Origin: Planctomycetota bacterium
Lineage (GTDB): Bacteria; Planctomycetota; UBA1135; UBA2386
Reading direction: 5' to 3'
Length of the DNA stretch: 64,000 bases
Assembly (NCBI GenBank): GCA_965223545.1
Contig: OZ245006.1
Span: 256,001-320,000 of the forward strand
This document shows positions 22,495-29,389 of the stretch, piece by piece. The position numbers and the translations under genes were made by a program. The notes beneath the pieces are model-generated. The model was not told where the DNA came from. It was given only the letters and a program-made list of their open reading frames with translations, and searched no databases. Numbering within the stretch: the stretch's first letter is position 1; each line of letters begins with the position of its first letter.

Positions 22495-24063
22495 TCACGG
22501 ACACTTCCACACGACCTGCAAACCCCGCCTTCCGAACACGACGATCTCGTCCCGTCCACCGGCGAAGAAATCGGCAGTGGTCGCGCCGAAGGCCGAGATG
22601 CTGCCGACACCCGTCGGCCGATCGTGCCCGAACACCTCATTCCAGACGTACGGCAGCGCCGGATCGGAGCCGTCGAACCTCAGGCGCCACACCGAGTAGC
22701 GGTTGTGCGAGAACGAGAGCACCTCGTCGGTCGTGCCGCCGTCCCAATCGATGACTTGCAAGAGACCCCCGCGCGGGCCGACCGGCAAGGGCGTGCCGTT
22801 GTTGTTCGCGATCACCAACTCTTGCCCTCGGGCGTTCACCGTCACGGTGCCCGCGAAGTAGAGCGGCGGTCCCTTCGCCGCCGCGACGTAGTGGTAGCCG
22901 TCGAAGCCGAACGCGTCGGGCCCATCGATCAGCCGAGCGCTGACCGCCTGTTGCCCGTGGTAGATCGCCTCGGTCAGGTCGTTCTTGCGCGTGTTCTCCC
23001 AGATCTTCGCCGGTGCGCAGCCGGTGCCGCCCGCGGTCGTCAGCAGGTCGTAGCCGTCGTGCAGGATCAGCAACAGCGGCGCCGCGCCGGTGTTGCCGGC
23101 TGGGTAGTACGGCATCACGGTGTCGGCGTGGTTGTAGTTGCCGGTGTGATTGGTCAGGAACGAGATGCTGGTGCGGAAGTCCCAGCTGCAGTTGTTCCAG
23201 ACGTCGATGACGCCATTCTCGAGAATGTCTTCGTGGCCATCGCCGTTGACGTCGACGTGCTGCGGATAGTGCGTCGCCGCACCGGACGAGCCGCGCTGGA
23301 AGAAGGCGTTCAGCGCGCCGACTGCGTACTCGGCCAGCGCCATGCGGCCGGCCTGGGTACCGAACAGATAGACGTCGTCGGTCGCCGTTCCTCCGCGCAC
23401 GCGCGCGCTCTGCACGACGAAGTTCGAGCCGCCCGCGCCGCCGCCGGTGTTGTTGGCGTGAAACGTCCAAGCGGTGGCGAAGGTGTCGACGTCGACGGTG
23501 GCACCGATGATCGGCGTCGGCTCGCCAAAGATGGGATCCGCAGCGCCGGCTCCGGTCTCGATGATGACCAACCGCGACGACCCCGAGCCGGCACAGCCGC
23601 CGGCGTGGCCGATCACCGCAGCGACCTCGTTGCGGCCATCGCCGTCGAAGTCGGCGATGGCGGCGCTGTCGGTACCCCAATCGTGCTTGTACAGGTCACC
23701 GCACGCGTCGAAGTGGACCCACAGCACACTGGGCTGCGCCAGCATCGTGCCGGCGGCGTTCATCACCTTGACGGCCATCAGCAGTCGCTGCTCGGCCTGG
23801 AACAACAGGTCGGGTTGGCCGTCGTTGTCGATGTCGCCGATGCTGACCGCGATGGGCGTGTAGTTGGGCCGGCCCGCGGGCGCGGGCGGCATGCCGTTGG
23901 GATTGTTGACCGATTGCGCGCGCAAGGTGACGAACGCACCGGTGTTGGGAAAGCTGCTCTCGATCAGACCGCACGGCGCGGGAAACGCCTGTTGGGCCGC
24001 GAGCGAGAGGACAGGTGTACAGAGGAAGAACGCGGCGCAACGCGCGCGAGAGAGCGGACTCAT
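22495..24063 (-). CDS. Secreted beta-propeller protein with DxDxDG calcium-binding repeats
   Basis: Signal peptide ending LAAQQ; GDIDNDGQPD, ADFDGDGRNE, VDVNGDGHED, ADFFAGGRDE. Confidence 0.8.
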   Translation of the reverse strand: MSPLSRARCAAFFLCTPVLSLAAQQAFPAPCGLIESSFPNTGAFVTLRAQSVNNPNGMPPAPAGRPNYTPIAVSIGDIDNDGQPDLLFQAEQRLLMAVKVMNAAGTMLAQPSVLWVHFDACGDLYKHDWGTDSAAIADFDGDGRNEVAAVIGHAGGCAGSGSSRLVIIETGAGAADPIFGEPTPIIGATVDVDTFATAWTFHANNTGGGAGGSNFVVQSARVRGGTATDDVYLFGTQAGRMALAEYAVGALNAFFQRGSSGAATHYPQHVDVNGDGHEDILENGVIDVWNNCSWDFRTSISFLTNHTGNYNHADTVMPYYPAGNTGAAPLLLILHDGYDLLTTAGGTGCAPAKIWENTRKNDLTEAIYHGQQAVSARLIDGPDAFGFDGYHYVAAAKGPPLYFAGTVTVNARGQELVIANNNGTPLPVGPRGGLLQVIDWDGGTTDEVLSFSHNRYSVWRLRFDGSDPALPYVWNEVFGHDRPTGVGSISAFGATTADFFAGGRDEIVVFGRRGLQVVWKCP

Positions 24064-24168
24064 GGTGGAACTGCCTGGGGTTTCGAGAAAGCGCGAGCCG
24101 TCCTCGCGCGACATCCCGAACGCGCTCCGTGATCGGGGCCGAGTTTCAGAAACTCGAGCCCGCGCCCG

Positions 24169-26036: not shown

Positions 26037-26224
26037 GGTTGGGCAAGGCTGGGTCACAGTCGTCTCCTGTTGGTGTTCGGCAAGGCATCAACCACGGCCG
26101 GCGGCGCGGGTTCCCCGCCGTCCAGAATCGGGACCGACCGCGCCGCCGCCGACGGCGGCAGCCGGACGCCGAGGCGGTATGCTGGCAACGCGCGCCCCCG
26201 GCCCCTGACAGCCCGCTGCCGCCG

Positions 26225-27409
26225 ATGCACCGACCACCCCACCGGATCTTCGCCGCCCTGCTGCTCGCCGCCGCCGTTCTGCCCGCCCAGAAAGACGACG
26301 CTGAGAAATGGCGCGAGGACCCGCATACCCGAGGCGAGCGCGAGGCGTTGGACCGCGCCGGATACGTCAACCTCGGCCACTTCGCACTCGGCGACAACCA
26401 CAACAGCATGGACGTCGAGCACGTTCTCGGCGAAGAGGTCAAGATCCTGTGGATCGAGACCGCGCACTTCCGCCTGGGCTGCAACCTGCCCGAGTACAAG
26501 ATCACCGAACGCGAGGAACGCGACAAGATCGGCGCCGAGGTGCGCGCGCTGCGCGACATCCTGCCCCGCATTCCACGCCGCGTCCGCACGCTGTCGCCGT
26601 GGTTGCGGGCGCACCTCTACGCGTACCGGCTCGAGCAGCAGTACCAGGACTTCTGCGAGCGGCTCGGCGTCACCGATGCCGACTTTCCCGCCGAGGCCCC
26701 GATCCTGGGCCAGCCGTACAAGTTCCCCGTGCTGCTCTTCGAGAAGGCCAGCAGTGTCGGCCACTACGCCACCACGTTCATGGCGATGCAGCCGCCCGAC
26801 AACGCCGTGCGGCACTACTTCGACAACACCAAGGCGTTGGTGTTGGTGACCTGCACCGAGTTTGCCGGTGAGACCTTGAAGATCGACACCGCGATGCACT
26901 GCGAGGTGGCGTTCAACAACGCCCACAACATGGTCGACGCCTACCGCGGCTACCGCCACCGGATGCCGCACTGGTTCGGCCAGGGTTTGGCCCACTGGTA
27001 CCTGCGCCGCGTGAGCCCGAAGTACAACGTGTTCGCCGAGGAGGTGCGGTTCGACGCCCGGCCCAAGATGTTGTGGGACTGGCCGCCGAGGGTGCGGGCC
27101 CGCGTGGAGCACGGCGTGTTCCCGCCGGCCGCGGAACTCTTGCGGTGGCGCTACGAGGACGAGGCCAAGCTGGTCGACAGCATGTTCCTCTGGTCGCGGC
27201 TGGACTTCTTGATGAGCCTGGGTGACGAGCGGTTTCGCATTTTCCTACACCGCATGAAGGGGCGCATCCCCGCCGAGGGGTTCATGCCGACCGAGGAAGA
27301 AGTCCACAAGGAGCAGCTGCTCGCGATGGAGGAAGCCTGGCAGCTGACCCCGGAGCGGTTCGACGAGGATTGGGCGGCCTGGGTCCTCCAGACCTATCCC
27401 CGCAAGTGA
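26225..27409 (+). CDS. Secreted hypothetical protein, possible degenerate zincin-like fold
   Basis: Signal peptide ending LPAQ; NNAHNM...PHWFGQGLAHWY resembles HExxH...PxWxxEGxA with substitutions. Confidence 0.75.
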   Translation: MHRPPHRIFAALLLAAAVLPAQKDDAEKWREDPHTRGEREALDRAGYVNLGHFALGDNHNSMDVEHVLGEEVKILWIETAHFRLGCNLPEYKITEREERDKIGAEVRALRDILPRIPRRVRTLSPWLRAHLYAYRLEQQYQDFCERLGVTDADFPAEAPILGQPYKFPVLLFEKASSVGHYATTFMAMQPPDNAVRHYFDNTKALVLVTCTEFAGETLKIDTAMHCEVAFNNAHNMVDAYRGYRHRMPHWFGQGLAHWYLRRVSPKYNVFAEEVRFDARPKMLWDWPPRVRARVEHGVFPPAAELLRWRYEDEAKLVDSMFLWSRLDFLMSLGDERFRIFLHRMKGRIPAEGFMPTEEEVHKEQLLAMEEAWQLTPERFDEDWAAWVLQTYPRK

Positions 27410-27524
27410 GCAAGGCGGCCGCTGGCCGAACCGCCCCGAGCCCTTGGCGCGGACGGCACCAGCAGTTACACTTTGGCTCCCCATAGGCGCCTGCCCGAGC
27501 CGAACTGACCCTGGAGGGTTTTCG

Positions 27525-28463
27525 ATGCGCGAGTCTCTGTTGAACGTGGTCCCGATCGCACTGGCTCTCGGCCTGCTCGCCGCACCGGCCACCTCGCAGT
27601 GATGAGCGGGCCCTTCGGCCTCCGGTTCGGGGGCCCCGAGTCCTGCGGCACCTGGTGGTGGCGGCCTCAACGGCCCACGACCCGGCGGCGGTCCGCCCGG
27701 CGCCGGCCCGATGACGGGCGGCGGCGCGCGCGGGGTGCCGATCTCCTTCGAGCGGCGCAAGACCAGTAAGGACCGTCTGCAGATCGACTGGGATTTCCCG
27801 GCCAGCCTGCAGATCGAGGACCAGACCGGTCAGCACACCGTCGTCGGCCAGCGGATGTACGCGCTGCCCCTCGACGAGGCCTTCGACCGCCTGGCGGCCG
27901 AGGATCTGCGCCCCCTGCTCGTGCTGCGCGAGTGCGGCCGTTGCGCCGGCACCGACGACGCGCTGCTGAGCCGGACGCTCGACAACGAGAAGACGCTGCT
28001 GCTGGCCAAGTTCTTCCACTGCGTCAAGCTCAAGGAGCACGTCGTCGAGGAAGACCACTCGTTCCACCGGCTGTTCGACGGTGATCGTCCACCGCACCTT
28101 CTGCTCGCCACGCACGACGGCGGCGTCATCGCGCCGCTGCCCGGCACCCAGTCGCAGAAGGAGCTGTGGCAGCACATGCTCAAGATCCTCGACCTGACCT
28201 ACGAGAAGGACGCCGAGCTCGCGGTCAAGGGCATGCTCAAGCTGCTGTCCCACTACGACCACTTGGACAGCATGGAGGACGGCTACCTCGAGCAAATGGA
28301 CATCGAGATCGAGCGCCGCGGGCCGAAGTCGCCCAAGCTGCGCCGGCTCAAGGCCAAGCTCGACACGATCCGCGAGAAGAAGGAAGCCGCGCTCGCTCGC
28401 GAGCAGGAGCTGCTCGATCTCGGCCTCAAGGCGGAGATCGCGGCCGACGCCCGCTCCAACTGA
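27525..28463 (+). CDS. Secreted CxxC thioredoxin-like protein with two tandem in-frame UGA codons (candidate selenoprotein)
   Basis: GGAGG RBS, ATG 27525, signal peptide to PATSQ, TGA TGA at 27600-27605, frame continues through a Gly/Pro linker into ORF 27711..28463 (RPLLVLRECGRC). The body is clearly coding; read-through is inferred. Confidence 0.6.
27608..27636 (+). promoter_or_regulatory. Hairpin directly 3' of the UGA-UGA pair (possible SECIS-like element)
   Basis: GGGCCCTTCGGCC-TCC-GGTTCGGGGGCCC folds as a long stem with G-U pairs; the loop is not the canonical E. coli type. Confidence 0.35.
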
Positions 28464-28666
28464 GCGGCGCGTCCCCGCCGTCGGCCCGGCTCAGGGTCGG
28501 CGGCCCGCGCGGGCGGAACAGGCGAACCGGTGCGGTGACGCCCGGTCTCGCTGCGCGCTGCAAAAACTCGGCGAAATCCGCAAACCTTCGCGCCGCTCGG
28601 CAGAATGGGTCTTCGCCCTAGCGTCCGGCAACCAGGTGCCGGTGCGCGCAAACTCCGGAGACATAC

Positions 28667-29389
28667 ATGCTGCTCAAGGCCACCGCCGTCGGTTTCATCC
28701 TCGCGTCCACGCCGCTGTTCTTCGTCACCCCGCAGGACACGTTCACGGGAGACGACTCCCCCGCGGCCCTCGGCGACGGCAGCGCCGTCGCCGAGCTGCG
28801 CAGCCTGCGCGAACAGGTGGCCGCCATGCGCGGCGAGCTGCAGGTGATGCGGGAGCGCTGCGGCAGCTTCGCGCAGCAGCTGGAGGAGGCCCTCGACATG
28901 CTCGAGGCCGCGCAGACCACCGAGCGGCGCAGCTGCAGCCCGTCGCGCTCGCAGCGCCGCTCTCTGCTCAGCCAGTACCAGTGGATGCGCAAGTACGGGC
29001 ACGACGAGCGCGCCGGCCGAGCGCTCGCCCGCTTGCTCCGCACGGTCGGTGACGACCGCGACAACCTCAACCGCTTCTCCTGGCACTTGATGACCGAAAC
29101 GGCGACGCAAGGGCAGTTCGACGATGTCGCGCTCGTGCTCGCCGACCGCATGGTGAAGCACGGCCACTTGCGCCACAACCACTATGACACCATCGCGCTG
29201 GCGGCCTTCCTCAACGGCGATGTCGACCGGGCGATCACCATGCAGGGCGAGGCGGTCAAGCAGAAGAAGAACGACAGCGACTACCGCCGCCGTTTGCGCA
29301 CGTACGAGGCCTCCAAGCTGCTCGCCGCAGCGGCTCCGGAGAGCGCTCCTGACGTCGCCAAGCTGGTCGGCGAAGAAGAGGAGGAGTGA
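28667..29389 (+). CDS. Secreted coiled-coil/TPR-like protein
   Basis: GGAG RBS, signal-like N-terminus, coiled coil, LNRFSW...YDTIALAAFLNGDVDRAITMQ. Confidence 0.75.
   Translation: MLLKATAVGFILASTPLFFVTPQDTFTGDDSPAALGDGSAVAELRSLREQVAAMRGELQVMRERCGSFAQQLEEALDMLEAAQTTERRSCSPSRSQRRSLLSQYQWMRKYGHDERAGRALARLLRTVGDDRDNLNRFSWHLMTETATQGQFDDVALVLADRMVKHGHLRHNHYDTIALAAFLNGDVDRAITMQGEAVKQKKNDSDYRRRLRTYEASKLLAAAAPESAPDVAKLVGEEEEE

Follow-up and report, generated by a model that had tools for sequence, protein, structure and literature searches.

In the window analyzed here (the whole stretch of 64,000 nucleotides), one gene carries two adjacent in-frame TGA codons directly after the segment encoding its signal peptide. 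This locus raises the question of whether the two codons terminate a short leader peptide or are decoded as selenocysteine (Sec, U), and of what a Sec pair could do at the start of an exported protein.

The gene with the TGA pair

A previous sequence-only reading had proposed that positions 27525 to 28463 encode a secreted selenoprotein, and the following elements of that reading were recovered, namely, GGAGG, the ATG at 27525, a signal-like leader, TGA TGA at 27600 to 27605, and the LRECGRC motif. Encoded in this order are the signal peptide, Gln, the TGA pair, a Gly/Pro linker, a CxxC thioredoxin fold, and a coiled hairpin, as listed here together with the upstream partner gene considered below.

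26225-27409, forward (+) strand: partner gene, encoding a secreted protein of the collagenase (M9)/gluzincin fold without HExxH, a distant DUF1570 relative (linkage, fold)
27513-27517, forward (+) strand: Shine-Dalgarno-like GGAGG, 7 nt 5' of the ATG (sequence)
27525-27599, forward (+) strand: predicted signal peptide plus Gln25 (leader MRESLLNVVPIALALGLLAAPATSQ, 25 residues, signal-like)
27600-27605, forward (+) strand: TGA TGA, read as Sec26-Sec27 (sequence, family dyad tally, sister-lineage swaps)
27606-27646, forward (+) strand: candidate in-ORF bacterial SECIS (RNAfold, family conservation, spacing, consensus of PMC13188914)
27606-27734, forward (+) strand: Gly/Pro/Ser/Ala linker, modeled with low confidence, whose first ~13 codons also form the SECIS
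27735-28202, forward (+) strand: predicted thioredoxin-fold domain with C137-x-x-C140 and conserved C166, H178, and H191 (model, fold matches, conservation)
28203-28463, forward (+) strand: predicted antiparallel helical hairpin (helices 206 to 241 and 246 to 273 of the model, mature numbering) and terminal TGA stop

The linker, previously put at about 45 amino acids without another stop, comprises 43 residues, with the frame open from the TGA pair through to the terminal TGA at 28461 to 28463. No Shine-Dalgarno-like motif was found 5' of the ATG at 27711, the ORF-track start already described as lacking a ribosome-binding site, and signals ending in Gln do occur in other exported ORFs (LPAQ in 26039-27409 and LAAQ in 22495-24114). 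Contigs of runs X1 and X2, which belong to one study that is possibly the source of the window DNA, were identical to positions 27300 to 28600, so the read error considered earlier finds no support there; the TGA pair lies outside the sequence covered by runs X5 and X6. In the 133 TGA-bearing family genes described below, the residues before the dyad were APQ (69 genes), LPG (16), VPQ (10), and similar, with an in-frame Met 15 to 36 codons 5' of the TGA in 126 and, by eye, a lipobox ending in Cys in none. Q-U-U may be the exact mature start, as had been proposed, but judging from the relatives, most of which read APQ-UU or LPG-UU, Sec could instead sit 2 to 5 residues from the mature end. A genome-wide scan for a signal peptide followed by TGA, which was crude and blind to other layouts, yielded 35 hits among 609 candidates; the window gene was the sole clear case and the sole UU.

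Elsewhere in the window, a secreted-looking coiled-coil/TPR-like protein with weak Pfam hits only is encoded downstream of the selenoprotein gene (28667-29389, + strand) and is not conserved beside family genes, and the secreted protein encoded at 22495-24114 (- strand) contains, by eye, FG-GAP-like D-x-D-x-D-G repeats.

State of the two codons across the family

The C-terminal 250 residues of the window protein matched 49 of 61 relatives and 172 of the 251 genomes of the class; a contig pattern scan with the window protein alone as the query detected no relative. Named homologues, including those in Atlas clusters, were mostly labeled as Planctomycetota (3 of the 4 names giving an organism in one of the searches). 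Upstream DNA was examined at loci L021 to L168, comprising 48 search-returned loci and 100 regions picked among the matches listed to cover the families, which gave 159 family genes in total from genomes that are related to one another and are not independent samples. At the dyad site, TGA was present in 133 of these genes, as TGA-TGA (80 genes), TGA-Cys (38), Cys-TGA (7), or a single TGA (8, 5 of which have Cys five residues further on), while a single Cys was found in 14 and no motif was called in 12. The latter comprised six genes at a contig edge, one broken gene, one single-Cys gene missed by the filter, and four paralogues with neither Cys nor Sec. One of these four is L022 of the window's own genome (G000:C1:3178444-3179127, - strand), with a signal peptide, a Pro-rich linker, and CxxC and with no N-terminal Cys or Sec and no adjacent partner gene. 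As the earlier reading had anticipated for true homologues, the upstream DNA revealed a signal peptide with TGA or TGY at both codons; neither Trp nor Cys-Cys occupied the dyad in any of the 159 family genes, and no Cys-Cys dyad occurred among 87 long or signal-bearing database proteins.

Both dyad positions exchange with Cys separately, position 1 in the Cys-Sec (CU) genes and position 2 in the Sec-Cys (UC) genes, and the swap is seen between sister lineages, with L024 (UC) next to L021 and L023 (UU) at a support of 0.997. A FastTree domain tree of 146 genes, from which the dyad and linker were excluded and whose deep branches are weak, required 31 changes of dyad state, whereas shuffling the labels raised the mean to 59.6. 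On this tree, close relatives alternate between UU, UC, and CU, and UU occupies entire clades of 23, 10, and 8 genes. A second chalcogen is retained even where the spacing is altered, as in U-G-P-G-G-C and U-G-G-G-R-C. Mainly because each position swaps with Cys independently, we consider it highly probable from these comparisons that both UGAs are Sec. The same exchanges bear on the view that the double UGA serves mainly to make translation of an exported scaffold depend on selenium, with Sec chemistry being secondary. Such a switch would fit the placement of the UGAs at the gene start, where failed decoding leaves the signal peptide only, and that of the dyad on a tail disordered in the model, but Cys takes the place of a lost UGA in nearly all cases, and the paralogues without UGA mostly have Cys at the first dyad position, neither of which a pure switch needs, making this view quite improbable.

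A pseudogene, a sequencing error, or a true double stop behind a leader peptide, followed by downstream reinitiation, is the remotest of the alternatives. It could draw on the use of TGA as the commonest terminal stop in the family (81 of 157 genes) and on the many members that stand in the databases as N-terminally shortened proteins. However, chance origin of the pair is excluded by the presence of TGA at the site in 133 of 159 family genes, in frame across widely differing linkers (the distance from the dyad to the conserved Trp ranges from 27 to 88 residues in U-bearing genes, always with the frame kept), and the run contigs agree with the window. Moreover, in 21 of the 80 UU genes, the stretch from the UGAs to the domain is devoid of ATG, GTG, and TTG, and reinitiation cannot explain these genes. 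The window gene is almost certainly a real selenoprotein gene. Recoding of UGA to Trp was likewise rejected, because Trp occurs at neither position and TGA terminates the family genes in the number given above.

Several loci carry more than one family gene. At L137 to L141, the whole two-gene unit is tandemly duplicated; one copy has UU, UC, or U, whereas a single Cys or a lone U is found in its duplicate, possibly as a selenium-independent backup. Two Sec-bearing copies share one partner gene at L078 (UU plus UU) and L117 (CU plus CU), and a family gene at L133:3462-3851 (- strand), which has a lone U and stops early, is probably broken.

A probable single hairpin for two UGA codons

Bacterial Sec insertion is usually viewed as involving one UGA per adjacent SECIS, in competition with termination. 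In the window, RNAfold predicted an 8-bp upper stem (27617-27624/27628-27635) under a GUU loop (27625-27627), with the loop G at 27625 lying 22 nt after the first UGA and 19 nt after the second. The presence of a hairpin next to the TGAs had thus been read correctly, but its start had not, as the lower stem begins at 27606 rather than 2 nt after the pair. The window hairpin satisfies the bacterial SECIS consensus as given in PMC13188914. Folding energy was not better than that of shuffles for the window region (z, -0.1 to -0.9) and not below that of synonymous shuffles for the UU set (mean z, +0.28). When a hairpin was required to have no fewer than 5 stem pairs and, at positions 18 to 28, a loop containing GU, it was present in 62 of 80 UU genes (18 failed), 26 of 38 UC genes, 5 of 7 CU genes, and 5 of 8 single-U genes, compared with 0 of 14 single-Cys genes, and after synonymous shuffling of the UU set (300 replicates), it was present in 6.0 genes on average and in no more than 15 of 80. 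Two loop types were represented by 51 and 37 distinct sequences, with 37 others fitting neither, and stem positions show G-C, C-G, and A-U exchanges. In-register Watson-Crick pairing amounted to 69% and 64%, modestly above one-base slides (45 to 61%), with larger slides at 20 to 52%. By the loop test and the stem pairing, a SECIS-type hairpin is conserved across the family, in agreement with the earlier proposal.

The distance from the UGA to the loop G was 19 or 22 nt in 24 of 26 UC genes and 19, 22, or 25 nt in 6 of 6 CU genes, while the UU genes combined 22 and 19 nt in 48 of 64 cases and 25 and 22 nt in 11. Since the single-UGA relatives use both of the window's spacings, the single hairpin appears to lie within working range of both UGAs, and one SECIS can serve both. 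We infer that SelB acts twice from one hairpin: bound to the in-ORF SECIS, it would deliver Sec-tRNA first to UGA26, 22 nt from the loop, and, after one translocation, the same SECIS-bound SelB would deliver Sec-tRNA to UGA27, 19 nt away. Such two-step Sec decoding is strongly supported by the comparative data. The Sec genes of the Escherichia coli fdhF type share with the window gene a UGA followed by a hairpin, a 3-nt loop starting with GU, an 8-bp stem, a spacer of 19 to 22 nt, and selABCD; in contrast, two adjacent UGAs share one hairpin here. In 1993, Chen, Fang, and Inouye reportedly found selenium-dependent decoding of tandem UGAs, at much lower efficiency, with an E. coli fdhF reporter. 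This reported loss, together with the frequency of UC and CU forms (45 of 159), would favor decoding of one UGA as Sec and of the other by a near-cognate tRNA (Cys or Trp), with a low-level Sec-Cys or mixed product. Yet UU outnumbers every other state (80 of 159) and makes up the clades of 23, 10, and 8 genes, a codon meant as Cys could just be TGY, and the placement of the SECIS loop puts both UGAs in range, so that we regard single-Sec decoding as improbable.

The source genome (8.1 Mb, 69.7% G+C) contains selA, selB, tRNA-Sec (selC), and selD, all above cutoffs, and hence the machinery on which the sequence-only reading depended. Its selD itself has an in-frame TGA, for which no clear SECIS hairpin was seen on inspection. 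Of the 251 class genomes, 241 have a selA match, as do all 21 of the tested genomes with more distant homologues. The 10 class genomes without a selA match are 75 to 89% complete, and five that were rechecked had selB (5 of 5) and tRNA-Sec (3 of 5), so they are not usable as Sec-free controls; among the class genomes screened for selA, no Sec-free genome carrying the family, in which a Cys-Cys form could be sought, was found. The occurrence of selA in 100 of 100 high-quality class genomes and in genomes as small as 1.8 to 2.4 Mb suggests that the class has an important, largely uncatalogued selenoproteome.

Protein architecture, partner, and possible function

In the AlphaFold2 model (141-row alignment; pLDDT 85.9), an arm of low confidence (mature residues 1 to 40; pLDDT 47 to 57) is followed by an alpha/beta domain and then by a long helical hairpin. 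Nearly all Foldseek rows were thioredoxin-like (best E value, 0.014), and DsbD-gamma matched with middling strength (Z score, 8.4; rmsd, 3.3; 115 residues aligned), which supports, at that strength, the thioredoxin-like domain proposed from the sequence. C137, C140, C166, H178, and H191 are conserved in 149 to 155 of the 159 genes and P190 is kept in 111, and a loop rather than a regular helix directly follows CxxC in the model. A Sco-like reading, with His in place of the cis-Pro, was dropped because Pro190 is mostly retained. The window protein itself had no Pfam hit, and no family for the selenoprotein was found in Pfam and NCBIfam r20, which gave scattered weak unrelated hits, each in at most 5 of 141 members, and a sequence profile found no match in the PDB below an E value of 0.07. 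The fold and CxxC are shared with DsbD-gamma, ERp18/AGR2, Thioredoxin_7, and the thioredoxin-fold selenoproteins (UxxC/CxxU), whereas Sec lies outside CxxC here, and CxxC is all-Cys in ~150 of 159 genes and absent in the distant subfamily.

A homologue of the upstream neighbor at 26225-27409 lies within 1.3 kb on the same strand, usually downstream, for 83 of the 98 family genes whose flanks are complete (50 of 52 among UU genes), and no other neighbor was general to family genes. This partner has a signal peptide and a confident model (pLDDT 94.9), which resembles VhaC collagenase (Z score, 17.0; rmsd, 3.4; 251 residues aligned), and weak hits to DUF1570 (7 of 120 members) and Peptidase_MA_2 (4 of 120) were obtained. 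It shares its fold with the M9 collagenases/gluzincins, DUF1570, and Peptidase_MA_2; in contrast to these, HExxH is not conserved in the partner family, in which the catalytic-Glu position is Asn in 88% and the equivalent helix, placed by sequence and the family pattern, reads as a variable x-N-(L/M)-x-x. A single passing mention of DUF1570 was found in the literature. The source genome has two more full-length partner paralogues that stand alone; these, L219 (G000:C1:1545963-1547072, - strand) and L220 (G000:C1:2191240-2192373, + strand), are located away from family genes. For the partner and mature residues 40 to 288 of the selenoprotein, the Sec-bearing arm being excluded, complex prediction gave a score of 0.81, versus 0.01 for the best of three controls. 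This score passes the mark used, which 116 of 157 solved pairs attain, compared with 2 of 215 mismatched ones, counts that are only approximate with the alignments employed here. The runs agreed in at least 68% of contacts, with a partner pLDDT of at least 81. The tip of the hairpin, the strand with W65, and the loop bearing CxxC form the predicted interface, to which the conserved residues W65, P68, E112, T119, K144, E239, and G242 (mature numbering) contribute, together with R271 on the partner side. The modeling supports binding of the selenoprotein body to the partner.

Across the phylum, the profile matched 43 of 301 genomes, and 20 regions examined contained 23 matching genes, 2 of which were of the long type with a partner. 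Among the remaining 21, 20 have TGA directly after the signal peptide (9 UC, 5 CU, 5 U-x4-5-C, and 1 lone U), and none is UU. CxxC was absent from all 15 distant homologues examined for it, and the partner was absent from 18 of the 20 regions, while most members of this distant subfamily have a hairpin with a CCAGU loop, as in the main family. Judged from these sequences, N-terminal Sec is more widely retained than CxxC, and neither CxxC nor the partner is needed for Sec. Because these relatives keep N-terminal Sec without CxxC or the partner, the arm probably does more than serve CxxC. The earlier idea of an arm serving the CxxC domain can be at most part of the story, and the CxxC loop is also part of the surface predicted to contact a conserved partner, which was absent from that reading. 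Short CxxC-free genes also occur as tandem pairs (UC plus U-G-G-G-R-C at L203 and L206; UC plus UC at L212), and a gene that appears sugar-phosphate-isomerase-like by reading alone lies near distant homologues in 5 of the 20 regions.

The interpretation that we favor, and consider rather likely, is a tethered Sec-Sec redox module of an exported 312-residue selenoprotein with a pseudo-peptidase partner, for which we infer the Sec insertion, export, and chemistry. After export and signal cleavage, the Sec-Sec pair would hang on a flexible tether from the thioredoxin-fold/coiled-hairpin body, which is predicted to bind the coencoded collagenase-fold pseudo-peptidase. Cycling between diselenide and selenolate, the pair could act as a mobile redox center that exchanges disulfides or diselenides, either in the periplasm or on the surface, with a client that the inactive cleft of the partner possibly holds, and the CxxC by the interface would be a relay or a structural disulfide added in the partner-bearing subfamily. 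The partner's Gly-Pro-binding cleft might hold the Gly/Pro-rich tether or a client. A redox function of the arm as such has about an even chance. The whole picture, in which a double-Sec exported vicinal-diselenide protein made from a single SECIS forms a heterodimer with a dead collagenase-fold partner as a new extracytoplasmic selenium redox module, is offered more tentatively, at slightly less than that.

The main rival to a redox center is metal binding, with Sec-Sec as an N-terminal hook for soft metals (Cu, Hg, Ag, or Ni) and with the body and partner handling a metal or organometallic substrate. According to 10.1101/2022.07.06.499078, CU dipeptides are tied to heavy-metal handling in SaoL, SaoB, SaoC, MerT, and HgcA, and the N-terminal extension of HgcA reads PCUGP, compared with QCUGP, SCUGP, and GCUGP in the CU members here; the conserved C137, C140, C166, H178, and H191 also speak for this view. 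Nevertheless, no metal transporter or metal enzyme is found among the conserved neighbors, the CUGP likeness may reflect a SECIS-coding constraint, and the distant subfamily lacks CxxC, so we consider a metal hook unlikely.

The favored Sec-Sec redox module has partial counterparts among known systems. Mammalian thioredoxin reductase has a C-terminal Gly-Cys-Sec-Gly arm and thus shares a vicinal chalcogen pair on a flexible terminus, while the family here is N-terminal, exported, without a flavin domain, and often has two Sec residues. Eukaryotic SECIS elements lie in the 3' untranslated region and are not tied to codon distance. Consecutive Sec-Sec (GUGUU) is predicted in algal PDI_e, a thioredoxin-fold protein, according to PMC7539508; this likeness is by description only, and PDI_e is eukaryotic, whereas the pair here is on an N-terminal tail apart from CxxC. 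The CU selenoproteins HgcA, SaoL, SaoB, SaoC, MerT, and KCU-star share a vicinal Cys-Sec pair, HgcA also shares an N-terminal Sec position overlooked by gene callers, and some of them are surface exposed, according to the available text of Haft and Gwadz (10.1101/2022.07.06.499078), in which CU is called rare and neither Sec-Sec nor "Planctomyc-" occurs; the family here, in contrast, is also UC and mostly UU and did not match their NCBIfam models. Table 1 of PMC13188914, a 2026 list of 119 prokaryotic families, includes CU, UC-containing, UxxU, and multi-Sec families and no UU. The passages searched in the main texts of BSepDB and deep-Sep do not mention "Planctomyc-," and in the searched portion of the BSepDB supplement, QUU and GUU occur only within species names. 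A search of the openly available literature found, among the papers listed, no case of bacterial Sec-Sec or of Planctomycetota selenoproteins.

The double-UGA family is uncatalogued and represents a new variation on Sec decoding. The catalogued selenoproteome misses it because databases store its members in shortened form, and a family present in 172 of 251 class genomes, with a conserved partner, is thereby absent from it. A vicinal diselenide is chemistry for which the search found no characterized bacterial example. With UU in 80 of 159 genes, UC and CU forms as controls supplied by nature, and a spacing rule that can be measured, the family offers ready-made constructs for the question of whether, and how efficiently, SelB decodes twice from one hairpin, and it could serve as a template for making multi-Sec proteins.
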